From assembly GCA_017461385.1 (NCBI GenBank), contig JAFTXZ010000002.1:38221-102220 (forward strand): 64,000 bases of DNA, written 5' to 3'. The position numbers were made by a program, and so were the translations under genes. This DNA comes from Clostridia bacterium. Its GTDB lineage: Bacteria > Bacillota > Clostridia > Oscillospirales > CAG-272. The notes under the pieces were generated by a model that worked only from the letters and a program-made list of their open reading frames with translations, was not told the origin of the DNA and did not search any database. Positions 29,756 to 53,223 of the stretch are shown here, one piece after another. The stretch's first letter is position 1; each line of letters starts with the position of its first letter.

Positions 29756-29784
29756 ATTATATCACAAGATATTTTGCTTGTCAA
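29756..29784 (-). promoter_or_regulatory. tRNA-Gln promoter
   Basis: Minus strand TTGACA-17 bp-TATAAT with TG extension. Confidence 0.85.
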
Positions 29785-29977
29785 CATTTTTTTGGAAAAA
29801 AACAGCAAATTAAAAGGTTTGATATTTTATCAAAAGAAAACTAAAAAATAGTCTTAGTTTGCTCTTAAAAAATATACATTAACTAGTTGAATTTTTTGAA
29901 CTAACTCTAAATTTTTTGAAAAAATATTCAAAATTAAAGAAAATTCTTCAAAATGAAACGAATTTTGACAAAAATCG

Positions 29978-30006
29978 TTGACAAAATCTATGCGCATATA
30001 TATAAT
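29978..30006 (+). promoter_or_regulatory. Consensus sigma-A promoter of the 10-gene operon
   Basis: TTGACA-17 bp-TATAAT, followed by AAGGAG RBS and ATG 30036. Confidence 0.85.
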
Positions 30007-30035
30007 ATATTTATCATTATAAAAAGGAGACTGCA

Positions 30036-32057
30036 ATGAGTAACTATTTGAATATAGCCATTGACTTGGGAACAGAGTCGGTTAAGGCTGTATATGCTTT
30101 TAAGAAAAATGATGAGCTTGAATATGGCTTCATTGAAGATAAAAATTCATTGGGCACACCATTTACTAGTCTGGCACTTTATTCAGGTGCACCGCAAAAT
30201 AAATGGATTTTCGGTGCTGAAATCAACCATCACGATGAGTATGCAAACATAGTTAGAGTAAAGGAAATGCTTTACCTTTTGTCATCACAAAACGTGGGAG
30301 ATTCCAATTACTACTACGACTACAAGGAATACCCAATTTTCCTATTTCCTAAAAGGGCAGATCAGCCTGATATTAAAAACGGGATGGAGGCACTGGTTGA
30401 AAGAGGCTACACCTTTAGAGCAACAAGCACACCTAAGGAAATGCTTGAACAATTCTTCAAGGCTCTTTTTGCTGAGTGTATTAGTCCGGTTGTGTATAGG
30501 CTTCTTTCAGAAAATCCTGAAATTGAGGGAGTTAAGTACATATCTGTTTATCCAGACCCTAAAAACATAAGTGATGAATATGTAAACGAGCTTGAAAGAC
30601 TAATTGCACACGGCGCAGGCTTAAGAGATACGAGCATGGTTAGCTCAATTTCAGCACCTAAAGCTATTGCCGTTGGAGCTTACGTTGAGAAGCTAATTGA
30701 GGCTACAACCTACGATGATGACAGAAGTAAAACTATGATCTTCGATATTGGCGAAAAGGACATAAACGTTGCAAAGGTTGACGTAAAGCACGGTGCCTCT
30801 GGCGGAGAAAGAGAAATTTCCGTTTGTGTTGATAGTGCCGATGCTCAAAAGCATGATATTTCAATGGGTGGTGCCGATATTGATAAATGCCTGGGTGAGT
30901 TCGCAAAGGAAAAGAGCTCACAGATAAGAGATCTAAATAGTGGACTTAAGGATGCAGTTTTAGGATATACCTCATACCGTCAGCAATATCATCTCCTAAG
31001 AGAGGTAAAGGGAGCTAAGAAGTTCCTTTCATACTCTGATATGGATCTTGATGATTATGCCTATATTACCGTTGAGGGCGACGTAAACACTGATATTAAA
31101 ATCACAAAGAACGATTTTTTAGAGGCTGTATTTGAAAGAGAGGGCTCTGCTGGTAAGGAAATGGTAGAGAAAATCGTTCAGGAGCTTAAGGAGAGCAACA
31201 ACGAGGACGTTGTAAACGTATTGCTTGTTGGTGGAAGCGCAGCGTCATATAGCCTTCGTGAGTATGTTGAGTCCGCTTGTATTGAGGCAGAGCTTGACAG
31301 GATAAGCGTATCGGTTGTTGAAAACGAGGAAAATCAAAAAAGTGAATATTTTGCAGCAATTGGCGCCGCAGTGCTTGAGCCAGAGGGAATTTCCCTAAAG
31401 GTTGTATCTGCGTACACCTATGGAACATGGAGAAAGCAGGCAAAGCGCAACGGCGCACCTGGTGAAATGTGCAAGGTGTTTACAATATGGATTAACCGTG
31501 GCGATGAGATAAGCGCAGAAAACTACACCTGCGAATGCTCTGCGTCATTAGGTTATGCAGATGCAGTTTATAAATATCCATACAGATTAAATCCAAAAAC
31601 TATTATTCCCGAGGGCGCAGATGAGGAATGGTTTGAGTACGTAGAGCCATTGATAATTGGCGCAGAGGATGAGCGAGAGGATAAGAGACTGTTTGAGCAA
31701 GCAAAGAGAAATGGACTAGTTGTAATAGGCTCCGTAGACTTTAAGTTTGCAGTTAGAGACCGACATGGAAATATAATTCCAATCGAAAGACTTGTAGATT
31801 ACTATCAGCCATGCATTACAACTCACGTTGATAGCTATGGTAACTTCCGTGGAAGAAGATTTCACAATTGTATTTACTTTAAGCAGGGCATGAGGGTTGA
31901 TGAAACCGGAGCAATTAAGCCCTTCTACGAAAATAACGTAGAAAAGAATGCACGACTAAACGCAAACCTTTACGTGCGAGATAACTCAAATAGCTATTAC
32001 GCGAAGGACTTCGTAATCGAGGGTAATATTGAAGCGTTTAAGGCTGAGACTAACTAA
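30036..32057 (+). CDS. Divergent Hsp70/actin-fold ATPase-like protein
   Basis: IAIDLGT, IFDIGEK, MGGADID, VLLVGGSA, AAIGAA match the five Hsp70 nucleotide-binding motifs; C-terminus unlike the DnaK substrate-binding domain. Confidence 0.8.
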   Translation: MSNYLNIAIDLGTESVKAVYAFKKNDELEYGFIEDKNSLGTPFTSLALYSGAPQNKWIFGAEINHHDEYANIVRVKEMLYLLSSQNVGDSNYYYDYKEYPIFLFPKRADQPDIKNGMEALVERGYTFRATSTPKEMLEQFFKALFAECISPVVYRLLSENPEIEGVKYISVYPDPKNISDEYVNELERLIAHGAGLRDTSMVSSISAPKAIAVGAYVEKLIEATTYDDDRSKTMIFDIGEKDINVAKVDVKHGASGGEREISVCVDSADAQKHDISMGGADIDKCLGEFAKEKSSQIRDLNSGLKDAVLGYTSYRQQYHLLREVKGAKKFLSYSDMDLDDYAYITVEGDVNTDIKITKNDFLEAVFEREGSAGKEMVEKIVQELKESNNEDVVNVLLVGGSAASYSLREYVESACIEAELDRISVSVVENEENQKSEYFAAIGAAVLEPEGISLKVVSAYTYGTWRKQAKRNGAPGEMCKVFTIWINRGDEISAENYTCECSASLGYADAVYKYPYRLNPKTIIPEGADEEWFEYVEPLIIGAEDEREDKRLFEQAKRNGLVVIGSVDFKFAVRDRHGNIIPIERLVDYYQPCITTHVDSYGNFRGRRFHNCIYFKQGMRVDETGAIKPFYENNVEKNARLNANLYVRDNSNSYYAKDFVIEGNIEAFKAETN

Positions 32058-32071
32058 GAAGGAGAAGAGAA

Positions 32072-34948
32072 ATGCCAGATATGAAGATAAAATACAGTGG
32101 TGGCGAAAACGTTGACGTTAAGTCAAGGCTTGAATCTGTTAAGCCTGTGCCACTAACTGATGTCAGAGCAAATCAGGTGTCCTATGTTGAGGTGCTTGAC
32201 AAGTATGACGACATGGAAATGAGAATAGATGTCAATTCCTTCGAAAAGACCTTTTCAACAGGGGACTACGGCATCGAGTACAATGAGGATATACACACAA
32301 CGGGACGTGTAATTCTTGACGAGCAGTACGAGGCTGCAAAATACTTTATGAAAAACCTTCGTGGCTTCGGTGTATTGGCAGATACAGTTGGATCTGGTAA
32401 GACCTACGAGGCAGGACTCGTTTTATCAGAGCTTGCAGCTGCCGGTAAAATTGAAACAATTTTGATAATTGCTCCAAACAAGGACCTTTTGAAAAAGTGG
32501 AAAAAGACCCTTGAGCTTGAGTTCGGTATGGGTAAGGACACAATTGTCGAAAAGGAAACTGAGTTCAAGAACATAAGAGCAGAGTTTGAGGAGGAAAGAC
32601 TTGGCAATACCTATTTGCTCAAGCCAAAGCAGCCTATAATCGTTACAAAGGAAAACTTTGTAAAATGGGACCTCAATCTTGTTAAGAGCTTGCTATTCGA
32701 TGTAGTTGTAGTAGATGAGGCACATTATCTAAACGATGAGGAGGGGGACGGAGCTATTGCTCTGAGAAACCTTTCCTACCTTATGAGAAACAAGCAGCTT
32801 AAGAATAAAAACTATTGTATTCTTCTAACTGCTACACCTCACTCAGGTAACCTTGCAAAAATGTTCAATCTTTGGTACTTCGTTGCTGAAAAGGGTGGCG
32901 TTCCAAGCGACTTTGACGGCACAAACGTTGTTAAGAGTGAGAAGTACAAGCGCAGAAAGGAAAAGTTCGTAAACGCTTGTAGAGGAGCAGAAACAGTTTC
33001 TGAATTCCTTGCCACCACAAAGGAGCAAATGTTTGAGGCGAACGATGAAATTCTTGAGGCCTTCTATGCATACCTAAGAGAAAGAGGAATTGCAGATTAT
33101 AACGAGGCAAGTAAATGGGATAAGAGAAAATATCAAAATGAATTTTTGTCTCTTGAAAAGAATCAAGAAATTAACAGAGAGCTTTTGAAAAACGTTTCAA
33201 GAGCCTACTACGATAACGTTTTGGGTGTAATCATGAGAAGAAACACACAAAACGAAAAGTCAACGATTAGAGCGAAAAAGGTTGTTACAAACATTTATAT
33301 TTGTCCAACCACAGAAAAGACGCTTGAAAGACGACAGGCTGAGCTTAAGGCATCAAGTAAAAACGGTATTATAGCTGACTTAAACGATATTTACGGCGAC
33401 GAGGCTTTAACTGTTAATAAGGGCAATAAAACCTACAAAACCTCACTTGAGGAGTATTACAAGGAGAACCCAAATAACTCAAAGGCAGAGATTATGTTTA
33501 CAAAGGTTCTCACAAAGCAGCTTCTTGAAATGGGAGTGGGAAGCCCATTTGAGCATGCGGAGAGCTTGAAGTATTACTGGTCACAGCTTGAAAGAACCGA
33601 AAGAGACCCTAACACAGCTGAAACAAACAACCAATTTAGAATAATGACCAACTACGATAGCGAAAATGAGGATGCAACAATCCACTTTAAGCTTAAGGAG
33701 CTAAAGAAAATATTCCTTGATAATCCAGACGACAAGATAATAGTTTTCTTTGACTACGAAAGAAAGAATAATAAGACCAAAAATGCAGAGTGGTTTAAGG
33801 TTTATGATGAGCTATCTAAGGACGAGGCGTTTAAGGACAGATTAATTCTTGCTCTAAACGGCACAGATGCAGTTGATAGCTACAATAAAATTGATAATGC
33901 AATCTTCCTTTCAGGCTCTGAAAGATATACTGAGGGTGTAGATATGCAAAGCGGACACATTGTAGTAAACTTCTCCGTAACCTGCGACCCACTTGCAATG
34001 TCTCAAAGAGTTGGTAGAGCATACAGACTAGGACAAAAGAATAACGTTCAAATCATATCTCTTGCTATGATGAATGAGCTTGAGGGCTATGCACTCGCAT
34101 ATCAAACTCGTATAGGACTTCTTTCCACCAACGAGGGTGACGCTACTATTATTGCTGGTAGTAACAGTGAAAAGATGATTGCTCTTGAATGCAGAGTTTG
34201 TCACAAGACAAAGCTTATGTCAAAGAAGGAATACGATGAGAAATACAAGTCGGGAGATAGCTCACTATACTGTACAAAGCCTGAGTGTGTAAAGCAAATA
34301 GGCGCAACCGCAAAGGGAATGCCATTATCAATCATCAACTCACAAGAGTATAAGTGCTCTGCCTGTGGCGAAAAGCTAAGGAAAAGCACACAGGGTGATT
34401 CTGGCTACTACTGTATCTCAGTAAATAACTCCTTTAAGGGAAAAATGTTCAATATTGATACTGGTGAAAGTGGATATAAGACAGTAATCGGCTGTTCTAA
34501 GCTTTGTGTAATCAAGCACTGTAAAAAGATTGCGTCCTTTGGTAAGAATGGCAATCAAGGTGTGCCATGTGCAATTATTGAAGGAAATATTACGAATGCA
34601 AACGAGGGTAGAGTTGCCTGTGTAAGATGTGCAAACTACAAAAACGGACTTTGTGCTCCTGAATGTACAATGAAGGAAAAGGACAAATTCGATGCTTGTG
34701 GACAATGTACCTACGCAGATTGCTCACCAAGACCACACAAGATATACTTTGACGAAAATAGCGTGGCAGAATGCCCATCCTGTGGCAGAGGTAAGCTAAG
34801 ACCTGTTACAGCAAACACCTTCGCTTCATATATTCGTCAATCCTTCGAGCACAACAAGGGAGATGCAAACGAAAGCACCTTCTGTGAAACTCTATTGCAG
34901 GAAACAAACGGCGTAGAGGAAATTAAGAGAATTCTTGAGAATAACTAA
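32072..34948 (+). CDS. SNF2/RapA-like (YqhH-like) SF2 helicase with Cys-rich C-terminal region
   Basis: LADTVGSGKT, DEAH, TATP, EGVDMQ, QRVGRAYRLGQ; many CxxC pairs in the last ~250 aa. Confidence 0.9.
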   Translation: MPDMKIKYSGGENVDVKSRLESVKPVPLTDVRANQVSYVEVLDKYDDMEMRIDVNSFEKTFSTGDYGIEYNEDIHTTGRVILDEQYEAAKYFMKNLRGFGVLADTVGSGKTYEAGLVLSELAAAGKIETILIIAPNKDLLKKWKKTLELEFGMGKDTIVEKETEFKNIRAEFEEERLGNTYLLKPKQPIIVTKENFVKWDLNLVKSLLFDVVVVDEAHYLNDEEGDGAIALRNLSYLMRNKQLKNKNYCILLTATPHSGNLAKMFNLWYFVAEKGGVPSDFDGTNVVKSEKYKRRKEKFVNACRGAETVSEFLATTKEQMFEANDEILEAFYAYLRERGIADYNEASKWDKRKYQNEFLSLEKNQEINRELLKNVSRAYYDNVLGVIMRRNTQNEKSTIRAKKVVTNIYICPTTEKTLERRQAELKASSKNGIIADLNDIYGDEALTVNKGNKTYKTSLEEYYKENPNNSKAEIMFTKVLTKQLLEMGVGSPFEHAESLKYYWSQLERTERDPNTAETNNQFRIMTNYDSENEDATIHFKLKELKKIFLDNPDDKIIVFFDYERKNNKTKNAEWFKVYDELSKDEAFKDRLILALNGTDAVDSYNKIDNAIFLSGSERYTEGVDMQSGHIVVNFSVTCDPLAMSQRVGRAYRLGQKNNVQIISLAMMNELEGYALAYQTRIGLLSTNEGDATIIAGSNSEKMIALECRVCHKTKLMSKKEYDEKYKSGDSSLYCTKPECVKQIGATAKGMPLSIINSQEYKCSACGEKLRKSTQGDSGYYCISVNNSFKGKMFNIDTGESGYKTVIGCSKLCVIKHCKKIASFGKNGNQGVPCAIIEGNITNANEGRVACVRCANYKNGLCAPECTMKEKDKFDACGQCTYADCSPRPHKIYFDENSVAECPSCGRGKLRPVTANTFASYIRQSFEHNKGDANESTFCETLLQETNGVEEIKRILENN

Positions 34949-34966
34949 TACAGAAAGGAAAGTCAA

Positions 34967-36709
34967 ATGCCAATAATTAGAATAAAAGACGATAGTAATT
35001 GCTTTGACAGTATGGTAAGGCTTCACCAAAGCGGTTATGGAAAATCGCAGTTTTCTGTTGTTGATGGAAGAATTGAATATGGCGGAAACACCTATGTCAA
35101 GGTTGAGGACACAGACCTATTTGAAAGGTATGAGCCTGACGATAAAAGTGAGCTTTTGATGACAAAGGAGGGCGCTGCCTGGTTCTATAATCTTCGTGGA
35201 GATAAGGACACGGACAAAAATAAAACTGGTATCGCTAAGTGGGATGAGCTTATTGCTAGTGTAAGAGCCAACTTCCACGACGAAAACTCCTGGCTAAAGT
35301 ATAACACCTCTGAGGAGCCTGTTAACGACAGCACAAAGCAATACGATATAAAAATGATTAAGGAGCTTGTTTGTGGCTTGTGGAAAAACCTGAACAAGAA
35401 CCTGGTCGACGTGGACTTCCAGCAATCAGCAGGCGAGGAGGACGAAATTACAAACGTTTATGGTGCTAGTATAAAGCTAGGCTTAAGCGCAAGTGAGGCA
35501 AGAGAGCCAACTCCAATAGTTGGTAGAATTTACTTCACAAGAGAGATAAACGGAAACCTTCGTCCAATATCAAAGCATACAGCTGAGCTACTAACAAAAA
35601 GAATGAGTGCCTTCAAGGAGGGCGAGGGAGACGGAGCAGACAACGTAGATGCAAACGAGCTTAAGGATAAGCTTGTATATGGTATCCAAAGATGCTTCAA
35701 GCAACCTGACAATAATAACGTTTCAAAGTATCTTTACATACCAACTCCAAGCGACCCGATGGTTATAGACGATAACAAGACCATTGAAAGAATGGTTGAG
35801 CTTGAGCCTGATGCAGTAGAGGTGCTTCTATGTAGAAGCGTAGAAATGCTTTACACCTTCCAGGTAAAGACAAGAAACAGAGTATACGACGTAAATTACG
35901 GAAGCCAGGCAATTTTAAGAGCGGTTGTTGATATGAATGGTGAGGTTACTCTTAAGTGCCTCGTTTGTGAGGACAGAAAGCCACTTATCAACAGAAATAT
36001 TGTTCTTGTTGAAAAGCCAAAGTCGAGCGATGATGAAAAGACAGAATATTACGAATGCTATCTCGACCTTGAGCAGACTGGCTTCGGCTTATCCGAGGCA
36101 CAGGCTGAGCTTGTAAGCGATTATTTGGAGAACCATATAATTCTTATAAACTGTCGTGAGGCTGAATGTAGTCGTATTAGATGTAGAGAGGGCATAATAA
36201 GCGGCGAGGAGCTAACAGGCATTAACACAAGAGTTAACTACTGTGCAGACTGTGACAGATGCGAGGTTATCTATAATGTTGATGGCGTTCCAAGGCTAAC
36301 AAGAACCCTTGTATATGACCATGAAAGAAAGGACCTTGTAGATAAGAATCTAGAGGAAAGCTATACCTGTAAGGTGTGTGGCAGAAGATACTTCTCACTG
36401 AATGAAAGAAAGGACATCTGTTCATTCTGTCAGGGTGGCGATGATGAGGAATCAGTAAAGAGAGCAAAGCAGCTCTTCCTCGTATATGCAAGGGCACTTA
36501 GTCCTATTGTAAGATTGAAAAACACCTTCGCATCTAAAAAGAGATGCTATGAGGACGAGGAATTTATCGTATTCAATCTAAACAATAGCTACTACGCAAT
36601 CGATAAGCTTAATGTTTTGGCAAGAGGCACAGGCCTACAAAAGACAGCAGCCTTCAAGTATTCAACGAGGACTGCTAACGAAAAGCCAAAGGCAAAAAAA
36701 CAAAAGTAA
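34967..36709 (+). CDS. Hypothetical protein with multiple CxxC zinc-ribbon motifs
   Basis: CLVC, CREAEC, CADCDRC, CKVC, CSFC; operonic spacing and RBS. Confidence 0.8.
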   Translation: MPIIRIKDDSNCFDSMVRLHQSGYGKSQFSVVDGRIEYGGNTYVKVEDTDLFERYEPDDKSELLMTKEGAAWFYNLRGDKDTDKNKTGIAKWDELIASVRANFHDENSWLKYNTSEEPVNDSTKQYDIKMIKELVCGLWKNLNKNLVDVDFQQSAGEEDEITNVYGASIKLGLSASEAREPTPIVGRIYFTREINGNLRPISKHTAELLTKRMSAFKEGEGDGADNVDANELKDKLVYGIQRCFKQPDNNNVSKYLYIPTPSDPMVIDDNKTIERMVELEPDAVEVLLCRSVEMLYTFQVKTRNRVYDVNYGSQAILRAVVDMNGEVTLKCLVCEDRKPLINRNIVLVEKPKSSDDEKTEYYECYLDLEQTGFGLSEAQAELVSDYLENHIILINCREAECSRIRCREGIISGEELTGINTRVNYCADCDRCEVIYNVDGVPRLTRTLVYDHERKDLVDKNLEESYTCKVCGRRYFSLNERKDICSFCQGGDDEESVKRAKQLFLVYARALSPIVRLKNTFASKKRCYEDEEFIVFNLNNSYYAIDKLNVLARGTGLQKTAAFKYSTRTANEKPKAKKQK

Positions 36710-36731
36710 CATTTGATAAAGGAACATAACG

Positions 36732-41396: not shown

Positions 41397-41410
41397 AAAG
41401 GAGATATCTG

Positions 41411-42679
41411 ATGAATAGATGTATAAATCCAGAATGCAGGGCGGTTTACACAGAGCCACTAAAAACGTTTTTGGGTGAAGAAAAATGCCCAAAATGCTGT
41501 AAAAACATTTTTCCTAGCAAGGATACAGTTTTGAAGATAACTCCAGAGAGCAGAGCCTTATATGTTCAATCAGAAAGACTATTCAAGGAGGGATATCTTC
41601 TTGATAAGGCAAAGGGACTTGGCTTTAAGAGTAAGCAGGAGGCGAAGAAGCTAGCCATCGAAAAATGTCTGGTTGCAGGTCTTTCCTTGCACGACCCTTA
41701 CGCATTACTATCATTAGCGTTTTACTATGAAAGAGGCTATGTAGATGAGGGCAATGACACAATAAGAGCATGGAAAAATTCTCTTGATTGCAACAGCGCA
41801 ATTTGTCTAAACACTCACACAGATAGCTCCTTTAGATGTGCTACAACAGACGATAGCGACAAGGGCGAGCTTTTTAAGCTTGACGCCTTTGAAATAAGCA
41901 AGCTTCAGCTAAAGTCTGGCGTTGCAATTTTAAGATTGCTTGAAAAGGCTCCATATCGTTTCAGAAAGGAAGCGGAGGGCGAGCTTAAGGGCAGGGTTGC
42001 AAGTAAGGTCTTGGAAATTTCCAAAAACTATCCAGAGCTTGTAACGGTTGAGAGCAACACTCTTGTAAAGAGGGCGCTTGCTCAGGATTCAAGCAAGAAA
42101 TCAGCAACGGAAAACACCTATATGACGGCAAGAGAGCTTGTAAGACATGCTCTTGATTTGAGAAATAGCGAAAGCAAATCTATGATGCTAATGGCATATA
42201 TGACTAATAGCGAGGTTGAAAAGCTCTACGACCCTGAAATTCTTGAAAATAGCAGGGGAGCAAGACAGCCTATTACAGAGCTACTTAAGGAGGAGCTTGG
42301 CATATATATCTATGCAATTCCAACTGAGGGCAGAGACGTAGGAAAGCAACCGATTAGAACCTTTAGCGAATACTTGAACATTTTGTCATACCGTAACCAG
42401 GAGAGCCAATATCTTTTCAAAAAGGAAAAGGAATATTGCTTCTCTGTATTTGCAATAAATGCTAAAAAGAAAATTTCTGCCAAGGGAATAACAGGCAAGA
42501 AAATCAAGCAAGCATTTGAGGACAATAGCACTGAGCTTATGAAGGAGCTCAATAGGAAATACGTTCATAACGAGTACGTATTTACGACAGACGATGTCCT
42601 TTGGGCGCAAAAGGAAAATGCCTCCAGCGCCGCAGAGGTTATTGAATTTATAATAGACAAAATCCCGTTGATTTATTAA
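41411..42679 (+). CDS. Hypothetical protein with N-terminal zinc ribbon and Sel1-like repeat
   Basis: CINPEC...CPKC; DPYALLSLAFYYERGY. Confidence 0.75.
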   Translation: MNRCINPECRAVYTEPLKTFLGEEKCPKCCKNIFPSKDTVLKITPESRALYVQSERLFKEGYLLDKAKGLGFKSKQEAKKLAIEKCLVAGLSLHDPYALLSLAFYYERGYVDEGNDTIRAWKNSLDCNSAICLNTHTDSSFRCATTDDSDKGELFKLDAFEISKLQLKSGVAILRLLEKAPYRFRKEAEGELKGRVASKVLEISKNYPELVTVESNTLVKRALAQDSSKKSATENTYMTARELVRHALDLRNSESKSMMLMAYMTNSEVEKLYDPEILENSRGARQPITELLKEELGIYIYAIPTEGRDVGKQPIRTFSEYLNILSYRNQESQYLFKKEKEYCFSVFAINAKKKISAKGITGKKIKQAFEDNSTELMKELNRKYVHNEYVFTTDDVLWAQKENASSAAEVIEFIIDKIPLIY

Positions 42680-42692
42680 AGGAGAAAAAATA

Positions 42693-44447: not shown

Positions 44448-44456
44448 TACGTAAAC

Positions 44457-44479
44457 GGGTGGGGCATTTTGCCCTACCC
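44457..44479 (+). other. Intra-operon GC-rich stem-loop without U tract
   Basis: GGGTGGGGCA-TTT-TGCCCTACCC. Confidence 0.55.
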
Positions 44480-44505
44480 CCAGTATTGGAAAAGGAGGGT
44501 ATCCC

Positions 44506-46476
44506 ATGGTAAATATGGATTTTACCAGAAAATTTGACGGTATACTTCAAAGGGCACAGCAGACCTATAAAACCTCTGTTAATGAGCAGGCACTCCTTTC
44601 TGCACAGCAAAGTCTGGAGCCAATAAAGAATCTTAGAAGTGGCAGGGATCTTTACGAAAAGCATATAAAAAACGCAGTTGGCTTAAGCCTTCGTATAGGC
44701 ATGAAGCGAATTGCTATCGACGCAGTAGTAAATAATCTCAGCTGTAAAATGGACGTGGCAATGGGCATGCTTGACAATATGGAAAGGGTTGCTATTGAAA
44801 ACAGCTTTCTTAAAACCTCAGCCTTGGCAATACGAATTAAGAATTTGTTGACAAGCCTGAAGTGGATATATGCTCAAAGTGATGAAATATACAGAACCTA
44901 TCAAAGTGATAGGGGTAAGAATGATGAATTTATTCTTTCCAAGGCGAAGGAAAAATATAGTGAGCTTTACAAGGAATGTGAAAAGCTCCCCTCTGAGGAG
45001 GAGGTATTTGAGGGAGTTTTATTCCCTAATATAAAGGCAGAATGTCGTGAGTTTATTGATAGCTTGATTGATGAGGTTAACGAAATTCACAAAAAGCTTA
45101 ATCGCGACAAAATCGGAAGTCGGGTTGACAATATTTTCAGCCCAATTCCACAGGAATGGAAGACCAGCTATAGCTTCCGTCCAACAATAAACGGCAATAA
45201 CAATAGCCTAATGGTTGTTGTTACACCATTTAAGGATGAATTTACGTTTCTTGCTTGCTCTTACGCACAACAAAACGGCTCAAGAGTGGCTGTGGTTGAT
45301 ATTACAGCAAGAGCCTTTGGAGATTGCTCGGCAAGCGAGATTAAGGAAATATTTAACTACGTGGGCACTACTGCGGACATAATTGCCATTACAGGTATGT
45401 CTATGTACCACGAATCAAATAAGAGCTATATTTATCAGTCCCTTTACGACGTAGCAAGAAGCAAAAAGGGCTTAAGTGTTTTAATTCACGATTTTAACAG
45501 TAAGCTTCCAGTTTGGAAGGAGGCAGAGGATGCCCTACCAGAGGCTTACGATATATTCTTTATGTATCTGACACTTCCAGGCTATAAAGAAACCCTTGAA
45601 GCGCTTAAGTATGGAAGCGTCCGTGAAATCGATGAGCTATTTGTTAAAAAGGAATGTGCGTTCCTTGGCTACGTAGGCGTAAACGAGGTAATAGCCATTC
45701 TGAAGAATGACTATACTAACGACTTTAGCGACACGGCATCAAGAAAATCTAGAGAAAATTACAGTAAAATTCTAGATTACATAACAAATCTAAAGAGCCA
45801 GTCTCAGCTGATAGGCGATGACTGGGGAAAGAGCTTTAATTGCTTCGAGGACGTAAGCTTTGAGCCCAAAAAGGACTTTGGTGGCTACGACTACGATACA
45901 AAAAGGCTTCTCAATCCTAAAAATCTTGATGCAATCATAAATATGGAAAACATTTTGTTGCCAGCAAGATGTGGACTAGCAGTAAATTACTGCTTGCTCT
46001 GTGGCGAGGACGTTTCAATTTGGCAGGAGCTAACTGATGAGGAAAGGCTTTATCGCCTAACCCTTGCAACAAAAACCGTTGGCAGACTACTAAATGCCCA
46101 ATATGACCCAACCGTTGAAATCAAGGAGATTGAGGGCAAGGCTGGTGCATATTGCTCAGGCGGTGGAAAGCTTATAGTTTACGGAAGCAAGGACGTTATG
46201 AATTTCTCTTGGCTTGCAGACGCCGTGTGCCACGAAATGTTCCATGCGTTTCAGCATACAGCCATGACTACTGGCTGGAAAAGATGGCATGCCAGTGAGC
46301 TTATGGTAACTCCTCAGCGCATTAAGGAATGGAATAAATGCCACGGTAAATATATCGACATAAACAAAAATGAGAATAGCTATTATGTCCAGGGCTTTGA
46401 GGTTGATGCTCGTGTATTCGCAGCAGAAACAACCGATGGCGTAACTAAGCATTGGCAAAAGCTAAATCTAGTTTAA
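44506..46476 (+). CDS. Protein with degenerate AAA-like middle domain and C-terminal HExxH zincin metallopeptidase
   Basis: AVCHEMFHAFQH plus downstream YYVQGFEVDAR (third-ligand Glu). Confidence 0.75.
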   Translation: MVNMDFTRKFDGILQRAQQTYKTSVNEQALLSAQQSLEPIKNLRSGRDLYEKHIKNAVGLSLRIGMKRIAIDAVVNNLSCKMDVAMGMLDNMERVAIENSFLKTSALAIRIKNLLTSLKWIYAQSDEIYRTYQSDRGKNDEFILSKAKEKYSELYKECEKLPSEEEVFEGVLFPNIKAECREFIDSLIDEVNEIHKKLNRDKIGSRVDNIFSPIPQEWKTSYSFRPTINGNNNSLMVVVTPFKDEFTFLACSYAQQNGSRVAVVDITARAFGDCSASEIKEIFNYVGTTADIIAITGMSMYHESNKSYIYQSLYDVARSKKGLSVLIHDFNSKLPVWKEAEDALPEAYDIFFMYLTLPGYKETLEALKYGSVREIDELFVKKECAFLGYVGVNEVIAILKNDYTNDFSDTASRKSRENYSKILDYITNLKSQSQLIGDDWGKSFNCFEDVSFEPKKDFGGYDYDTKRLLNPKNLDAIINMENILLPARCGLAVNYCLLCGEDVSIWQELTDEERLYRLTLATKTVGRLLNAQYDPTVEIKEIEGKAGAYCSGGGKLIVYGSKDVMNFSWLADAVCHEMFHAFQHTAMTTGWKRWHASELMVTPQRIKEWNKCHGKYIDINKNENSYYVQGFEVDARVFAAETTDGVTKHWQKLNLV

Positions 46477-46489
46477 TTCGGAGAGCAAG

Positions 46490-49400
46490 ATGAATAAAAA
46501 CGAGGTACTAAACAAGTATATTATCGAATTCCTCCACGTTGAGGAGGAATCCACTAATAGAATGATGGACTTGTATGGTACAGGAAAGTCAAGTAACCTA
46601 ACCATTGAGCTAGGGGATACTATGCCTGACCAAACAAGATTGTATTGTCGTATTGCAAGAATAATAAAGGAAAGAATAGGAAGACCGGCAGGAATTGCTC
46701 TAAGAGATAGCTCGCCACAAAAGGGAGTAGGTAACTTTGATGAGATAAATATTCTTGACTGGACCATTTCCAAGTATGAAAATGCCGACCTTGATACTAA
46801 GGTGAAGCTTCTTACAAAAATGGCAAATAGCTCCCTTGCAGAGCTAAAGCAAAAGGGAGTAAACTCCTTGTTCTTGTCCGTTGGCGCAATTAAATGGGAC
46901 GTGCCAGACCCAGATGACAATACACGATTTGTGAGCATTACAACACCATTGCTTATTTTCCCAATTAAGCTGGTGCGTTCAGGTAATGCTATGCCATATT
47001 GCATTGAGTTTGTGGCAGACGATATAAGATTAAATCCTTGTCTTATTGAGAAAATTGCCCGTGTTTATAGCAGGGAAACTGCCGACAAGCTACCGCTTCC
47101 AGTGGCAACGGAGGGCGCTGTTAATATTGCTGAGCTAGACGTGGAGCAATATTTTGCAAGCATTAACACCTTCATAGGTGAAAGCTTTAGAGATGCTCGC
47201 AGAGAATTTGCTTTGCAAAGCAATAAAATTGCAATTTCAAACTTCAACAGCATTGATATTGCAATGTATTACGACCTAATTAACCATAAAAAGGAGCTTG
47301 AGAGTAGCAGAATGATTGAAAAGCTATTCACAAGCGTTGACAGAGTAGATAATGAAATTATCGAAAAGCCACTTATCACTCTGCCTGCCGACACAGTGCA
47401 GGAGGGTATTCTTGCAAGAGCAGTTAATAACGACGACCTTATTATCAAGGGTCCTCCGGGCACAGGTAAAACCTTGACAATCGCTAACCTTGTTGCTTCA
47501 CTTATGGGCGCTGGTAAAAAGGTAATGTTCGTTTCTGCTAAAACCTCAGCCCTTGCCGAGGTATGCAATAAGCTTCCAGAGCATCTACGCCCATTTGTGC
47601 TAGAGCTATTCTGCGAAAGCGAAACCGAAGCTGCAAGCTTCAACGTAAACGACCTTATTGCTTCACTAAGAAAAGCAAGAGATGCAGAGCCTGTAAAGGA
47701 TATAGGACTTCTTAAGCAAGAAATCCAAGGCTATCAAAACAGCAAAAAGGATGCAGTTAGATATCTTGACGCATATAAGCGCTTCTATTTTACAGACCCA
47801 AATCCATTCACAGGTCGTGCCTTCTATTCAACAATCAATAATGCCCTTGTGTACAATGGCAACCCAAGATTAAGAGAGGCGTTTATTGGCAGAACCTCAA
47901 GAATTACCGTTGAGGACTACAATAAAATGCACGGCAAGGTTGAGCTTTGCGAGGCTAATCTAAATAATATCACAAATAACGGTGAAAAAATCGCAACCCT
48001 TAGTCCTTGGTATGATGCAGAAATAGCCGTTTCTCCAACCGCTATCGAGGGTGAGATTAACGACATTAAGGAAACTCTAAGGGATATATCTGAAAAGATA
48101 ACTGCCTTTATGAAGGAGCTTGGAATTGAGGATAAAAGAGATGAAATATCCCTTGCTCTATTTTCAAGAATTGTAGAGGCTGACATCAGCAAGGACAATA
48201 TTCAAAGAATTATAGAGGGAAGCATTCGCCCCTCGGTTATGCAAGCACTAAAGGAAAAAACAAGAGAGCTTGTTACTAACGATTTATTAAACGAATGCTT
48301 TAACTACGTAGTAAAGAACAAAATCACTATTAAGACAGATGATGAGCAGGGCTTAAGCGGACTTCTTGATGAGCTTGGTCAAGCAAGCTCAAATAAGAGC
48401 GCTAAGGAGCTTTTGGAAATCAAGAGCGCTATTGAAAAAATGAACCTTGCAGTGTCCGACTCCTGCGACGTGGTGCTTGACGTGTTTGAAAGCTACAGCA
48501 AAAAGGATGAGGAGCTGGACGAGGCTCAAAGAGCGTTAGATTTACTCGTTCCTGTGGTGGGCAAGCAAAGGGAAGCTCGTTATGAGCTACTGAATACTCA
48601 CTCACAAACGCTTTCTAAGTATTCTAAAAAGGATATGAAGAAGTTCTCCTTGTTTGAGGGTAAGGCTAAAAAGGCGTATGAGGAAATTTCCAGACTTCCA
48701 ATTGGCAAGGTACCGACTATTAATGAGGTAACTAAGGCTTGCGAAATCTTCGATGGTTTTAAGGTGATTGAGGCTGAAAAGAAGCAAATATTTACAAGAT
48801 TTGTTGAAATGTTCGGCGATGAGGTTACAGAAAAAGACGTAGCAAGCGTTGAGGAGTTTATCTCTGGCTGTGAGAGCAGAGAGGAAAAGAAAAAGCTTCT
48901 GAGAAGCTTGCTTGAGGAATCAAGGCTTGTGGAGGAAACTCTTGGACTCGTTACAAGTCCACTTGAAAGAGTGAGCGAGGAGCTAAAGTGTAAAACTGCT
49001 GACGAGCTTGCTGACGTGGTCCTTGGCGCTATCGAGCGTGCTAAGATTGAAAAGCTATACGAGACAGCCTGCAAGGAGCTTGGTCTTGTTGGTATGGATG
49101 AGCTTGTAAGTCTTGAAACGCCTGAAACGATTATTTGCATCAAGGAGCTTAGCGAATATATCGTGTTAAACGATACAAGAGCTACTGCAATTTTTGAGTT
49201 TATTAAGCAAAGAGATGATGTTGGTAAGGGATTGATTAAGCTTGAAAGAATGGCTATGAAGTATGGACTCAATCCAATTTATCGTAGCATTTCTAAGCTA
49301 ACCCTTGTTGATATAGATCGCTTTGTTGAGGATATTGGCGATGCCAGAATCAGCAACGCCTGCCTACAGCTTAAGGCGACTATGGACGAGGATAATATCG

Positions 49401-51103
49401 GCTGCCTAAGATCATTCCTTGAATTCTTTGCTCTGGGAATTGTAAAGCTTCCAAGACGTGATGAAATCAATATGACACAGCTATTTGAGTATGCATACTT
49501 TAATGCCTGCACCATTGATGGTGAAAATAAGCTAACTAAGGAGCGCGCATCTGTTTTCGACGGCACGGCTCTTAGAGCTATGGAGAAAAACTATATTGCT
49601 TCAAATACAATGCTTGCTCGCGCGCAGGCTAGGTATATAGCCCATCAACTATGTGTAAGCAATAAGCACGATCCTAAATATGCATTCTTGAACAACGAGC
49701 GTCCTGTAAGAACAAACGCAAGGGTGTTCTTTAAGGAAAATGCAAAGGCAATTCTTTCCCTTGCAAGATGCGTTGTATTATCACCATATTCCGTAAGCGT
49801 ATTTATGAAGCCAAAGGAATATTTTGACTACGACGTTTTGATTGTTGATGAGGCAAGCCAGTTGCCTGCAAGAGTAATTTTACCTTGTGCAATTCGTGCA
49901 AAGCAGGTTGTGCTTGTAGGTGACCAAAATCAGATGCCACCAATCCTTTACTTTGTAAGAAAGGATAACGCATCGGCAGATGAGGATGATGAGGAGGAGT
50001 GCAACAATATTCAACAGGTTGACTCAATCCTTGACCTTGCAATTAAAAACAAATCAATTGATGCAGTGGGACTTGTATGTCACTATCGTAGTAACAACGA
50101 GAGCCTTATTGCATATTCTCAAAAGAGATACTACGACGATATGACCACATTCCCAACAGCAAATCCTGAAAAGGATGGCAAGGGACTAGTTGACGTATTC
50201 GTTGACGGCGGCCACGCGGGTGGCGTAAATATGGTTGAGGCAAACAAGGTTGTTGAGCTTATCGAGAAGCATTTTGATGAGTATTATGATGAGGATGCGA
50301 AGATGCTTCGTGAATCCTTGGGCGTAGTTGTATTCGGTCAAAAGCAGCTCGCTTGTATAGATAAGCTTCTTGATAAGAGCCCTGTTAGGTCGAAAATCAA
50401 TCTCGCAAGAGCAAACACTAAGGAAAATCCCGATAAAACCTACTTTATCACAGCAGTTGATGGGGTACAGGGTCAGGAAATCGAGCATTTGATTATTTCC
50501 TTAACATACTGTAAGAGAGACGCTCACGGAGTGGTTAAGCAGAGCTTTGGTATGCTTAACAGAGTAGGAAACGGCGAAAGACTTGGTGAAAGAATATTCA
50601 ACGTTGCCGTAACGCGTGCAATTAAATCCTTGTCCTTTGTACATTCAGTTCATTCCTACGAGATTACAAAGCCATCTCTTTCACACCTTCGTGAATATCT
50701 CGAAATGCTGGAGGCGCTTGGTAACAAAAACGAGGATACAGCACCTAAGTTTGTATCTAATATGGATAAGGTCGACCAATTTGCACTCAGCGTTCAAGCT
50801 GAAATTTCAAAGCTAATTTCCGATAAGGAAAGAATAGTATACGGCTACGGTGTAACTGAAAAATCCTTGAGAATTCCAATTGCAATTTTATCAAAGGATA
50901 AAACACACGCGTCCTTGGCTATATTCTGTGAAACAGATATAACAGATGGTGACAGATACGTGGACAGCTGGGTAAATTACCCTGAAACTATGGAGGGACG
51001 TGGCTGGAAGCTACACAGAATGTATATTCACGACTGGTATTTTAACCACGAGGCAGAGCTAAAGGCACTTAAGAATGCCATCTCTAGCGTAAGCGAAGAA
51101 TAA
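46490..51103 (+). CDS. DUF4011 + SF1 (Upf1/DNA2-like) helicase + Vsr/MTES_1575-like C-terminal domain
   Basis: GVNSLFLSVGAIKW...PLLIFPIKL (DUF4011), KGPPGTGKT, VDEASQ, VGDQNQMPP, HYRS, VDGVQGQE, FNVAVTRA, GWKLHRMYIHDW. Confidence 0.88.
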   Translation: MNKNEVLNKYIIEFLHVEEESTNRMMDLYGTGKSSNLTIELGDTMPDQTRLYCRIARIIKERIGRPAGIALRDSSPQKGVGNFDEINILDWTISKYENADLDTKVKLLTKMANSSLAELKQKGVNSLFLSVGAIKWDVPDPDDNTRFVSITTPLLIFPIKLVRSGNAMPYCIEFVADDIRLNPCLIEKIARVYSRETADKLPLPVATEGAVNIAELDVEQYFASINTFIGESFRDARREFALQSNKIAISNFNSIDIAMYYDLINHKKELESSRMIEKLFTSVDRVDNEIIEKPLITLPADTVQEGILARAVNNDDLIIKGPPGTGKTLTIANLVASLMGAGKKVMFVSAKTSALAEVCNKLPEHLRPFVLELFCESETEAASFNVNDLIASLRKARDAEPVKDIGLLKQEIQGYQNSKKDAVRYLDAYKRFYFTDPNPFTGRAFYSTINNALVYNGNPRLREAFIGRTSRITVEDYNKMHGKVELCEANLNNITNNGEKIATLSPWYDAEIAVSPTAIEGEINDIKETLRDISEKITAFMKELGIEDKRDEISLALFSRIVEADISKDNIQRIIEGSIRPSVMQALKEKTRELVTNDLLNECFNYVVKNKITIKTDDEQGLSGLLDELGQASSNKSAKELLEIKSAIEKMNLAVSDSCDVVLDVFESYSKKDEELDEAQRALDLLVPVVGKQREARYELLNTHSQTLSKYSKKDMKKFSLFEGKAKKAYEEISRLPIGKVPTINEVTKACEIFDGFKVIEAEKKQIFTRFVEMFGDEVTEKDVASVEEFISGCESREEKKKLLRSLLEESRLVEETLGLVTSPLERVSEELKCKTADELADVVLGAIERAKIEKLYETACKELGLVGMDELVSLETPETIICIKELSEYIVLNDTRATAIFEFIKQRDDVGKGLIKLERMAMKYGLNPIYRSISKLTLVDIDRFVEDIGDARISNACLQLKATMDEDNIGCLRSFLEFFALGIVKLPRRDEINMTQLFEYAYFNACTIDGENKLTKERASVFDGTALRAMEKNYIASNTMLARAQARYIAHQLCVSNKHDPKYAFLNNERPVRTNARVFFKENAKAILSLARCVVLSPYSVSVFMKPKEYFDYDVLIVDEASQLPARVILPCAIRAKQVVLVGDQNQMPPILYFVRKDNASADEDDEEECNNIQQVDSILDLAIKNKSIDAVGLVCHYRSNNESLIAYSQKRYYDDMTTFPTANPEKDGKGLVDVFVDGGHAGGVNMVEANKVVELIEKHFDEYYDEDAKMLRESLGVVVFGQKQLACIDKLLDKSPVRSKINLARANTKENPDKTYFITAVDGVQGQEIEHLIISLTYCKRDAHGVVKQSFGMLNRVGNGERLGERIFNVAVTRAIKSLSFVHSVHSYEITKPSLSHLREYLEMLEALGNKNEDTAPKFVSNMDKVDQFALSVQAEISKLISDKERIVYGYGVTEKSLRIPIAILSKDKTHASLAIFCETDITDGDRYVDSWVNYPETMEGRGWKLHRMYIHDWYFNHEAELKALKNAISSVSEE

Positions 51104-51117
51104 GAGGAGACAATAGA

Positions 51118-51873
51118 ATGAAGAAGAACGAAAAAATGATTCTTGGCAACCCTGAAAGCAACAGCAGTAGCAGAGTAAGGGTTAGCGAAAAGGAAATGCT
51201 TAAGGCTAGTATTGAGCTTAAGGAGCAGGAAACCAATAAAAAGCTTATAGAGCTAGCAGAAAACCTTAAAAAGGTTCAAAATTCTAAAAGCACAAACAAG
51301 CAGGTTGTTGTAGAAACACTTTCTCAAACAATCAACCTTATAGCTCAATTTAAGGACGTTATCCTTGAAATTAAGGCGCTTGAGCTTGCTTTTGAGGCAA
51401 TAGCTGATACTTTCTCAATTGTTGACGACGTATTTCAGGTTATCGACCTAATTATGAATCAACAAATTGCACAGGATACAGGTGCATTCTCTGGCTTAAG
51501 AGCTAGAATGAACGTAAATAAGATGGCAAGATCCATCAAGAGACGCTTCTCAAAGATGCAAAATACCTTTATGGTAATTCCAAAAATGATGGGAATTATG
51601 GGAGGCTTCAATAATATTCTTGGCAAATCCATGGGTAAGATGAGCAAGAAGAATAAGCAAAGCGCTCAAAGAGACGGCAGAGAGTTTTCAGGTGGACTTA
51701 CTCCTGAGGCTATCGAAATGCTCAAGGAGCAGGGCGTTGATATGGAGCAGGGCGAGAGCTCTGGCTCTGGCGCAAGCTCTGGAGGAAATGGTGGCACTCC
51801 GGGTGGAGGACAGGGTGGTTCAAGCTCTGGCGCATCTGACAACGGTGGAAGCAACCCATTTGACGGTATTTAA
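51118..51873 (+). CDS. Helical/coiled-coil protein with Gly/Ser-rich tail
   Basis: Long amphipathic helices, Met-rich basic segment, tail SSGGNGGTPGGGQGG...NPFDGI; GAGGAG RBS. Confidence 0.78.
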   Translation: MKKNEKMILGNPESNSSSRVRVSEKEMLKASIELKEQETNKKLIELAENLKKVQNSKSTNKQVVVETLSQTINLIAQFKDVILEIKALELAFEAIADTFSIVDDVFQVIDLIMNQQIAQDTGAFSGLRARMNVNKMARSIKRRFSKMQNTFMVIPKMMGIMGGFNNILGKSMGKMSKKNKQSAQRDGREFSGGLTPEAIEMLKEQGVDMEQGESSGSGASSGGNGGTPGGGQGGSSSGASDNGGSNPFDGI

Positions 51874-51877
51874 TTTG

Positions 51878-51911
51878 TATGCTATGCGCGAGCCAGCTTG
51901 TGCATAGCATA
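51878..51911 (+). other. Intra-operon 16-bp stem-loop without U tract
   Basis: TATGCTATGCGCGAGC-CA-GCTTGTGCATAGCATA (with G-U pairs). Confidence 0.6.
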
Positions 51912-51944
51912 GTCCAAAAGCTATAAAGAAATGGAGATATAATA

Positions 51945-53174
51945 ATGGGAAAGGTAAATAGAGGAGATATCGATAATAACGATAACGGTATCGATCCAAG
52001 AAAGTCCGCAAACGACGCTGCAAATCAAGACCTTCAGGCAAATATTGAGGAATGCTATAGATTGCGTGATGCCATAAAGGCTCAAAGAGCTAAGGATAGC
52101 AAGAATATGACTCAAGAGCAAAAGATGGAGCTAAGAAAGCTCTATAACAAGCTTTTGCGTACAGCTAAAAAGGTAGTTGACCAAGCGCAGGACGAGGCTA
52201 CGATTAAGCTATTCAAGGGATTGATGGATACAGCCAGCTCAAGAGCAAAGGAATACGGCTCTGCTATTGTTGGTGAAGCTCCAAAGACAAGAATGGAGGA
52301 CATCAAGGGACTTGATAACGTAAAGGAGCTTGTAACAAGCTTCCTGTTTATGCTTAAGCACCCAGATGTAGTTAAGTACTATAACATTGAGGGTGGCTGC
52401 AATATGCTTATGTATGGCGCACCTGGTACAGGTAAGAGTATGTTTGCTGAAGCAGTTGCAAACGAAATGGGCTTACCAATCTTTAAGGTTACCCCTGCGG
52501 ACATTTTTAAGCCCTATGTAGGTGAGTCCGAGGCTTCAATCAGAGAGCTATTTGCAGAGCTTGACACCTGTGATGAGGGTGCAGTTTTGTTCATAGATGA
52601 GTGCGAATCAATATTCAGTGCAAGAAAGCAGGATACACAGGACTACAAGGCAGGCGTAACAACTGAGCTTTTGCAGGCAATGAACGGATTTGGTGTTGAT
52701 AGACGTAGAATTATTACAATCGCTGCAACAAACTGTCCAGAGCAGATTGACCCTGCATACCTACGTTATAAGCGTTTCTCACATATCGTACACGTAACTC
52801 CTCCGGACGAAACTGCTATTGAGGCGATTGTTAGAGGAAAGCTAAGACATACAAAGAAGGGAGAAATGGCAGAGGAACCACACAAAAGACCTCTTAAGCT
52901 TGCAGACGACGTATCTATCAGATACATAGTTGATCAGCTAATGGCAAGAGAGGAAATTGTAAATGGTGTACCAAGCTATTACTATACCCCTGCTGATGTA
53001 AACGGTATCGTGGAGGAGGCTTGTCGTTTGGCTCTTGTTCAGGTTGAAAGAAACAACACAGGCGAGACAATTCCACTAACCAGAGAAATGTTTGACAAGG
53101 CGTTTAAGAAGGTTCCACCAAGCGTAAGTCGTGCAAAGTTTGACGAACTTGATAGCTTTAGAAAGGAAGACTAA
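51945..53174 (+). CDS. Single-domain classical AAA+ ATPase (Cdc48/Vps4-like) with helical, possibly MIT-like, N-terminus
   Basis: YGAPGTGKS, pore loop PYVGESE, FIDECES, AATNCPEQIDPAYLRYKRF, C-terminal FDKAFKKVPPSVS helix. Confidence 0.9.
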   Translation: MGKVNRGDIDNNDNGIDPRKSANDAANQDLQANIEECYRLRDAIKAQRAKDSKNMTQEQKMELRKLYNKLLRTAKKVVDQAQDEATIKLFKGLMDTASSRAKEYGSAIVGEAPKTRMEDIKGLDNVKELVTSFLFMLKHPDVVKYYNIEGGCNMLMYGAPGTGKSMFAEAVANEMGLPIFKVTPADIFKPYVGESEASIRELFAELDTCDEGAVLFIDECESIFSARKQDTQDYKAGVTTELLQAMNGFGVDRRRIITIAATNCPEQIDPAYLRYKRFSHIVHVTPPDETAIEAIVRGKLRHTKKGEMAEEPHKRPLKLADDVSIRYIVDQLMAREEIVNGVPSYYYTPADVNGIVEEACRLALVQVERNNTGETIPLTREMFDKAFKKVPPSVSRAKFDELDSFRKED

Positions 53175-53186
53175 GCTTCGCTTTTT

Positions 53187-53223
53187 AGGAGTAAAGGCAA
53201 TTGTGCCTTTGCTCCTTTTTTTT
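53187..53223 (+). terminator. Intrinsic terminator ending the 10-gene operon
   Basis: AGGAGTAAAGGCA-ATTG-TGCCTTTGCTCCT followed by a T run. Confidence 0.85.

Follow-up and report, generated by a model that had tools for sequence, protein, structure and literature searches.

A stretch of 64,000 nucleotides from the genome of an uncultured Clostridia bacterium (assembly GCA_017461385.1, contig JAFTXZ010000002.1, positions 38,221 to 102,220 of the forward strand; in the following called the window) contains ten co-directional genes, g1 to g10, which very probably constitute a single, conserved and rare operon composed of two modules, g1–g5 (module A) and g6–g10 (module B). The best reading of this cassette is a role in conflict with phages or other mobile DNA, to which we give about even odds. 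The more far-reaching proposal, that one self-contained operon, inherited and moved as a unit, encodes a new conflict machine of two modules directed against phages or mobile DNA, falls slightly short of an even chance. The features of the locus are as follows (positions in the window, protein lengths in amino acid residues).

29670–29743, minus strand: tRNA-Gln(ctg) gene
29978–30006, plus strand: sigma-70-type promoter TTGACA-17-TATAAT with a 12/12 match, from the promoter scan
7 nucleotides 5' of the g1 ATG at 30036, plus strand: ribosome-binding site AAAGGAG
30036–32057, plus strand: g1, 673 residues, candidate Hsp70-like ATPase
32072–34948, plus strand: g2, 958 residues, SNF2-type protein
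34967–36709, plus strand: g3, 580 residues, CxxC protein
36732–41396, plus strand: g4, 1554 residues, predicted membrane protein with MBG repeats
41411–42679, plus strand: g5, 422 residues, zinc-ribbon protein
42693–44447, plus strand: g6, 584 residues, helical protein
44506–46476, plus strand: g7, 656 residues, putative zincin peptidase
46490–51103, plus strand: g8, 1537 residues, DUF4011 and SF1 helicase protein
51118–51873, plus strand: g9, 251 residues, helical protein
51945–53174, plus strand: g10, 409 residues, AAA protein
53187–53216, plus strand: intrinsic terminator, a 13-pair stem followed by a T-run, the top terminator-like site in 44000–56000

The gene order of the cassette is kept over considerable taxonomic distances. 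In another species of the same genus (G005) all ten genes were found in the same order with 28–66% identity and likewise beside a tRNA-Gln gene. The order is also the same in another genus (G323; 23–47% identity), where eight of the ten genes were detected by tblastn and open reading frames (ORFs) occupy the positions of g6 and g9, and another family of the same class (G567) again contains all ten genes in order. A g7 profile run against 185,579 species, each represented by a single genome, yielded 20 loci, all of them in Clostridia metagenome-assembled genomes from animal guts. g8 adjoins g7 in each of these loci, g9 and g10 are adjacent in 19 (the contig of the twentieth ends), and g5 together with further upstream genes is present in 17 of the 19 loci that have upstream sequence. 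Viewed from the opposite end, g1 stands beside g2 in 8/10 genomes searched, the two exceptions being short variants. A g1-anchored metagenome scan led to 13 loci; g2 is next in 12 of them, the thirteenth being only 1.6 kb long, and g3–g5 follow in all nine that reach that far. The genes beyond g1 and g10 differ between genera. Since the order is kept while the flanks change, the unit comprises exactly g1 to g10, and the genes are not scattered homologues, the outcome that would have refuted the original prediction: their order persists across species, genera and families. One genus carries an extra ORF of 288 residues without family assignment between g9 and g10 (L025:17569–18435 in G323 and L026:7053–7919; 80% identity between the two records).

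The genes are tightly packed. From g1 to g10 the coordinates give intergenic gaps of 14, 18, 22, 14, 13, 58, 13, 14 and 71 nucleotides, and in the orthologous loci the median gaps amount to 3–28 nucleotides at eight of the nine junctions and to 57 nucleotides between g6 and g7. Stop/start overlaps of 4 or 1 nucleotides are common, and in no locus are neighbouring genes of the cassette separated by more than a short gap. Only two promoter sites with a 12/12 match were observed in 29000–48900, namely that of g1 and the own promoter of tRNA-Gln(ctg), which lies on the minus strand and is divergent. As promoter-like sites overall are as frequent as in shuffled sequence (52 versus 40.9 ± 6.7), only the quality and the position of the site at 29978–30006 count. 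Inside the operon no strong plus-strand terminator was detected in the hairpin/T-run scan, and a comparable hairpin with T-run follows g10 in several orthologous loci. Coordinates and scans thus confirm the arrangement described originally, that is, ten co-directional genes with gaps of 13–71 nucleotides between one promoter and one terminator, divergent from tRNA-Gln. The G+C content of the operon region is not distinct from that of its surroundings. Downstream of the terminator a second perfect 12/12 promoter (53557–53585) precedes an unannotated ORF of 480 residues and a MoxR-type AAA ATPase (AAA_3, 2e-60); the region 53557–56103, which is conserved within the genus, appears to open a MoxR operon of its own.

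Independent metagenome assemblies from other studies contain the locus at ~99% identity on 11- and 12-kb contigs, so that it is not an assembly artefact. In the DNA assembly of run X3, contigs of 11,017 and 12,223 nucleotides cover 29715–40730 and 40748–49699 of the window, with 8,952 nucleotides of the 12,223-nucleotide contig aligned. For expression there is only a hint: in one metatranscriptome (run X17) short contigs of high identity and unknown strand lie over g2, g3, g4, g5, g7 and g8, span the g3/g4 and g5/g6 junctions and cover 17 of 30 bins, where the 13 uncovered bins do not mean silence. A single transcript, named originally as a check, is tentatively favoured by the short or overlapping gaps and by the contigs bridging two junctions, to which a carry-over of DNA may have contributed.

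The division into two modules follows from a core-only form of the cassette, which was encountered at L018:4418–18688 and L027:6983–18299. At both loci two or three g6-like paralogues are followed by g7, g8, g9 and g10 (in L018 with one or two small ORFs after g9), the core sits behind an unrelated GH2 glycosidase gene, and g1 was not found anywhere in the two genomes. Because these genomes possess only g6–g10, we regard g6–g10 as a stand-alone core and g1–g5 as an added module. The absence of g1–g5 from the short variant could also be understood differently, namely if two or three separate systems merely shared a small island and travelled together: a g8 resembling the anti-phage helicases ProA and Hhe, an IetA-like ATPase pair g9–g10 and an SNF2-centred group g1–g5. 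In line with this, the names Hhe and ProA each denote one protein, and PDC-S37, the PADLOC model closest to g8, is a single-gene candidate. We nevertheless consider such an island very unlikely. g7–g10 are adjacent in every locus of sufficient length, short variants included, g1–g5 were not encountered without the core on any contig long enough to tell, and relatives of g7, g9 and g1 occur only in the context of the cassette wherever a context is visible. Furthermore, none of the other nine families was found within ~4–8 kb of 12/12 ordinary ProA/Hhe-like Clostridia loci, and the frequent stop/start overlaps at the junctions likewise argue for one operon.

The cassette is rare. g1 is present in 1/24 other genomes of the genus and g7 in 1/300 genomes of the family, and one full-length relative of g7 was found among 399 genomes of the class. 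Among 1.84 billion representatives the g7 family counts 430 members when the limit is E ≤ 0.001 and 123 when it is E ≤ 1e-30, while word-indexed searches returned 12 clusters for g1, all unnamed, and 34 clusters for g9, all unannotated, among 5.8 billion proteins. The families of the cassette occur in Clostridia that live in the gut of mammals and birds and have not been cultured. Between the two species of the genus, identity amounts to 68–85% for the flanking proteins (one 48%) versus 28–66% for the operon proteins; as the latter are less alike than their flanks, the cassette either evolves faster or was exchanged.

The cassette occupies different chromosomal places in different genera and adjoins tRNA-Gln(ctg) in the window (29700–30366) and in G005 (L003:9866–9939), and 7 kb upstream in the window lies an ORF resembling a coupling protein of type IV secretion systems. 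These observations would be expected if the operon were part of a mobile element's own machinery for transfer, replication or maintenance and not a host system, an explanation which we find hardly credible. The adjacency to the tRNA gene is not conserved outside the genus, g7 is without match in plasmids, phages and IMG/VR, recombinases and relaxases are missing from the flank families listed (best 25 of 110), and the coupling-protein-like ORF is kept in the syntenic flank of G005 (82% identity) but not in other genera. This ORF (21521–23215) matches T4SS-DNA_transf, TraG-D_C and TrwB, and no other transfer genes were recognised among the neighbours scanned. A further neighbour, an HD-domain dGTPase-like gene at 24219–25451 (minus strand), lies 4.6 kb upstream of the cassette and is also present in G005; a distant metagenome locus has a dGTPase-like gene with 41–44% identity upstream of its own cassette (L038:3320–4477), which may be chance. 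One flank ORF, not specified further, matches the PADLOC dGTPase model at 1e-37.

Concerning the proteins themselves, for which all fold statements are sequence-based, four of the ten (g2, g4, g8 and g10) are recognised by Pfam, PADLOC and NCBIfam, and the other six families are without any annotation. The assignments of SNF2 to g2, MBG to g4, DUF4011/AAA_11/AAA_12 to g8 and AAA to g10, which had been made from the letters and translations, were recovered by Pfam. g1 consists of a nucleotide-binding domain (residues ~1–450) and a beta-rich, poorly conserved C-terminal domain. Its profile matches the nucleotide-binding domains of Hsp70 proteins in the PDB weakly (E 2e-5 over ~210 residues), and the motifs DLG, FDxGE and GG, corresponding to phosphate-1, phosphate-2 and adenosine, are conserved in 16 orthologues; a Pfam match was not obtained and an Hsp70 substrate-binding domain not recognised. 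The weak profile match together with the conserved motifs suggests a divergent ATPase of the Hsp70 superfamily. g2 shows the Pfam domains ResIII, SNF2-rel_dom and Helicase_C followed by a Cys-rich C-terminal tail, and its DEAH, ATPH and QRIGR motifs are conserved across the orthologues. It matches DrmD, BrxH, RapA and DpdE at ~1e-24 to 1e-18, far under the equivalog cut-offs. In the orthologue alignment g3 exhibits about ten invariant Cys arranged as CxxC pairs in its C-terminal half, with no match in Pfam, PADLOC, NCBIfam or the PDB.

g4 is the sole protein of the ten with any transmembrane-like windows. Five of them were found at the N-terminus, in agreement with the five segments counted originally, and the MBG repeats (Pfam MBG_2, 1e-18) belong to the outside part, which is variable in length (1000–1650 residues; 1143–1828 residues for the entire orthologues). 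g5 starts with a CxxC...CPxC zinc ribbon; it also contains a single Sel1-like repeat and ends in an alpha/beta domain in which a DD is invariant. No significant match was obtained for it in Pfam, PADLOC, NCBIfam or the PDB, and the Sel1 call is based on the motif only (PDB Sel1 matches at E 0.16–3.8).

In module B, g6 is a long helical and charged protein that passes via a flexible linker into an acidic C-terminal peptide, conserved among the 24 C-termini compared; it has no family match in Pfam, PADLOC or NCBIfam. g9 is built similarly, with a helical part, a basic patch, a Gly/Ser/Ala-rich linker and, according to the orthologue alignment, a conserved acidic-hydrophobic C-terminal peptide. 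Neither a significant PDB match nor a family-library match was obtained for g9; a CspB prodomain match (E 0.009) is below the cut-off and represents the only subtilisin-related trace among the ten proteins. The C-terminal peptides of g6 and g9 differ from each other, and both are kept in the cassette of the other family (G567). In adaptors and tags of AAA+ machines, such as those of SspB-ClpX and Pup-Mpa, tethering relies on a short peptide at the C-terminus that a flexible linker joins to a folded part. Because g6 and g9 share this linker-plus-peptide build with AAA+ adaptors and tags, we infer that their tails might dock on g10 or g7. A complex prediction for g9 and g10 (score 0.06, mark 0.32) speaks neither for nor against binding.

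g7 combines a helical N-domain and an alpha/beta region resembling a degenerate P-loop with four Cys that do not vary and a zincin motif near its C-terminus. Of its original description as a pseudo-AAA/HExxH peptidase the second half stood, the signature HExxHxxQ...ExDA being invariant in 20/20 sequences, whereas the pseudo-AAA half did not find comparable backing, with only non-significant hhalign matches (16% and 5% probability, both at one region). There was no match to Pfam, the PDB or M41, and the C-domain alone is also without PDB match. The eCIS_core/DUF4157 model PF13699 did not match in 5/5 cassette genomes, and a SprT-like match was seen only below the cut-off and in 2/10 distant g7 relatives (E 5.6e-4 and 4.6e-3). 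A distant g7 subgroup (P0120–P0145; ~570–620 residues) keeps the P-loop-like region and the zincin and has a different, shorter N-terminus; in a class-wide search with its profile G567 was the only long match. The zincin part alone (profile ~470–572) matches frames of 210–467 residues in G654, G364, G682, G353 and G695, so that the g7-type peptidase domain also exists outside the cassette, in five unrelated Clostridia genomes.

g8 is recognised by DUF4011 (44.7 bits, cut-off 22.2) and, also above the cut-off, by AAA_11 and AAA_12 of Pfam. It is composed of an Upf1-like SF1 core with invariant helicase motifs, an insert of ~700 residues and a Vsr/RAP-like C-terminal domain, the latter with weak matches to MTES_1575 (31.3 bits versus a cut-off of 38.2) and the RAP domain (E 0.037). 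g10 contains one AAA module behind a helical N-domain of ~100 residues. Walker A/B, the pore loop YVG, sensor-1 and the Arg fingers are intact and conserved, and strong matches were obtained to Pfam AAA (7e-34), to VAT/p97 D2 in the PDB (1e-77) and to CDC48 of NCBIfam (2e-39), as well as to the AAA module of the same organism's own FtsH (hhalign 99.8%). By these predictions g10 is a classic-clade AAA+ unfoldase of the Cdc48/VAT/FtsH type, which, given its intact motifs, should thread polypeptides. All-against-all hhalign of the ten families unveiled no paralogy beyond P-loop motifs; a relationship of g6 with g9, or of the g2 tail with g3, was rejected on this ground.

From these components a possible mode of action can be outlined. 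Module B would form the core, in which the SF1 helicase g8 engages foreign nucleic acid and the unfoldase g10 and the zincin g7 act on, or are steered by, the helical proteins g6 and g9, whose C-terminal peptides could offer the ATPase or the peptidase a docking site or a degron. Module A would contribute g2 as a zinc-finger SNF2 translocase of DNA, its zinc-finger partner g3, the Hsp70-like ATPase g1 and the zinc-ribbon/Sel1 adaptor g5, and the large, variable MBG-repeat ectodomain of g4 might anchor the machine to the envelope, the site of DNA entry, or set it off there. The defence role as such, the binding partners, the targets of the peptidase and any signalling through g4 are all presumptive here, and the coupling of g4 to the cytoplasmic parts is purely conjectural. 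A more elaborate version, which appears decidedly doubtful to us, is a new class of envelope-anchored immune machine in Gram-positive gut bacteria. In it, g4 would sense contact with a phage or a foreign cell, and g1 and g10/g7 would release the two DNA motors for action once the helical 'safety' proteins with their tail tags have been removed or cut. If true, this would represent a regulated proteolytic activation of nucleic-acid motors without counterpart among described defence systems.

The proposed conflict role is favoured by the kinship of three proteins with defence families, that is, of g8 with PDC-S37, Hhe and ProA, of g2 with BrxH/DrmD and of g10 with IetA. The sparse distribution and rapid divergence of the cassette, the intact ATPase motifs of g2, g8 and g10, the invariant zincin motif of g7, the conserved tails and the precedent of the CoCoNuT compound operons also count in its favour. 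The interpretation put forward originally is partly supported. Several observations weigh against such a role. The usual context of a defence island is missing: of the 86 flanking ORFs, which come from 26 flank regions at 24 loci, most are housekeeping genes (EF-Tu type, PGK, TIM, ribosomal S7, DnaK, NrdD), and the defence-like ones among them amount to about one restriction-modification pair, one dGTPase-like gene and a few generic ATPase matches. g7 is without match in 72,556 plasmids, 50,697 phages and the IMG/VR contigs; integrases, recombinases and relaxases are all missing among the flank families listed (best 25 of 110); and no clean empty site or insertion boundary was seen in three relatives of the genus, where the MoxR neighbour is present and the upstream context differs. 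None of the ten proteins was recognised as a clear effector of the nuclease or toxin type. The Vsr-like end of g8, for which the acidic triad of Vsr served as reference motif, lacks an obvious conserved acidic triad, and this nuclease domain may therefore be inactive. g8 also stays far below the ProA and Hhe cut-offs, and the RNA hint consists of assembled contigs from one run, to which carried-over DNA may have contributed. To our knowledge, an adhesin-like ectodomain of 1000–1650 residues is unusual for a defence system. Finally, according to PMC10250203 a large DUF4011 gene is a core gene, and not a defence gene, in P. aeruginosa.

Some of these points lead to an accessory envelope or surface system instead of immunity, which we regard as unlikely, albeit worth serious consideration. 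Here, g4 would bind a host or partner surface, and the cytoplasmic ATPases, the peptidase and the helicases would process DNA or proteins in response, for example to handle DNA upon contact, to turn over surface proteins, or to repair and remodel the membrane. The five transmembrane segments of g4 with a huge MBG-repeat ectodomain, typical of adhesins, the housekeeping flanks, the core-gene status of the DUF4011 helicase in P. aeruginosa (PMC10250203) and the position of g10 in the Cdc48/Vps4/FtsH clade are all consistent with it. The polymers and the membrane remodelling of the original prediction, however, found no backing. ESCRT-III and PspA were rejected as relatives, the models Snf7 (PF03357) and PspA_IM30 (PF04012) being without match in 5/5 cassette genomes (E ≤ 0.1 and E ≤ 0.01), and the Vps4_C match of g10 (E 0.0079, 16.6 bits) is under the cut-off of 21.3. 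Two genomes keep g6–g10 without g4, so the core can do without the surface protein. The very patchy distribution and the fast divergence, too, speak against an envelope system and fit a conflict system better.

In case of a defence or conflict function the cassette would be among the largest single-operon systems, combining four ATPase classes (Hsp70-like, SNF2, SF1 and AAA+) with a peptidase and a surface protein. We know of few immune systems that have been characterised from uncultured gut Clostridia. The occurrence of core-only and full forms and the conserved tails furthermore provide testable hypotheses on the control of a ProA/Hhe-type helicase by an unfoldase and a peptidase. Should the function not be immunity, the operon would tie a surface adhesin to DNA motors in a manner not known so far.

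A comparison with described systems supports the view that no named system matches the whole cassette, as had been supposed originally: PADLOC, NCBIfam and the literature (supplementary files lay outside this search) gave no match covering all ten genes. Literature searches revealed no paper on ProA or PDC-S37, nothing useful on IetA/IetS or Hhe/Vsr and, for DUF4011, none on such a cassette; for Hsp70-like proteins in anti-phage context only the work on CoCoNuT systems was found. The best PADLOC and NCBIfam matches of g8 are the ProA and Hhe families, with which it shares DUF4011, the Upf1-like SF1 core and possibly a Vsr/RAP-like end (PADLOC: PDC-S37 1e-117, Hhe 2e-52). With 402.2 bits for ProA NF058533 (5e-120; cut-off 1500) and 269.1 bits for Hhe NF042953 (cut-off 2000) it nevertheless remains far from both families, so that of the original comparison with Hhe a distant relationship is left. 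g8 is also shorter (1537 versus about 1700–2180 residues), and in contrast to these proteins, which are named singly, it always occurs with g7, g9 and g10. ProA/Hhe-like helicases as such are present in 22/300 Clostridia genomes, and five ProA-type Clostridia proteins scanned for comparison reached 1296–2106 bits, two passing the ProA cut-off and three coming close. Given its distance from the cut-offs and the lack of partners around its ordinary relatives, we regard g8 as a separate branch, distantly related to the stand-alone anti-phage helicases ProA and Hhe, which was recruited into a larger machine. G567 harbours a separate ProA-like helicase (G567:C6, L083:7900–13506; 1461 bits versus a cut-off of 1500) alongside its ten-gene cassette.

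The likeness to other systems is confined to single components. IetAS consists of an AAA+ ATPase and a subtilisin-type protease. g10 matches IetA (PADLOC, 5e-27) and IteA (NCBIfam, 2e-24) and shares its operon with a peptidase, but it attains 86.2 bits versus an IteA cut-off of 510, and the peptidase g7 appears to be a zincin and not a subtilisin; by Pfam, no subtilisin family occurs among the ten proteins. In analogy to FtsH, a classic-clade AAA module (g10) would be complemented by an HExxH...E zincin, here supplied by g7. Unlike in FtsH, ATPase and peptidase are separate genes; M41 (PF01434) matches only the genuine FtsH in 5/5 cassette genomes, and g7 aligns with FtsH at 16% probability, in the P-loop region only. 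The SNF2 core of g2 resembles that of DISARM and BREX (DrmD and BrxH, ~1e-24), but it reaches 83.8 bits versus the DrmD equivalog cut-off of 610. No methyltransferase or PLD protein was found among the ten proteins by Pfam, and DUF1998/MZB (PF09369) was absent from 5/5 cassette genomes.

In Zorya a membrane-embedded part is paired with soluble proteins including an SNF2-family ATPase that acts on DNA. The combination of a membrane component with an SNF2-family ATPase in our cassette follows the same logic as type I Zorya (ZorAB, ZorC and the SNF2-type ZorD; PMC11946911). However, g4 with its five transmembrane segments and adhesin-like ectodomain has no MotAB-like match (0 families in PADLOC), and the other eight components are without Zorya counterpart; no Zor model was among the PADLOC matches listed for the other cassette proteins (for g2 the best 25 of 33). 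A more extensive resemblance exists to the CoCoNuT type III compound operons, which, according to PMC11090510, join an Hsp70-like ATPase, an SF1 helicase and long coiled-coil proteins, one variant adding a Cdc48-like AAA+ ATPase beside a small protein with a Gly motif. These operons are built around McrBC, whereas the Pfam matches of the cassette include no McrB GTPase, McrC/DUF2357, HEPN, CSD or vWA, and the cassette additionally encodes an SNF2 ATPase, a zincin and a surface protein. As large operons that likewise combine Hsp70-like ATPase, SF1 helicase, coiled coils and Cdc48-like AAA+, they are the nearest printed analogue found for the ten-gene cassette.

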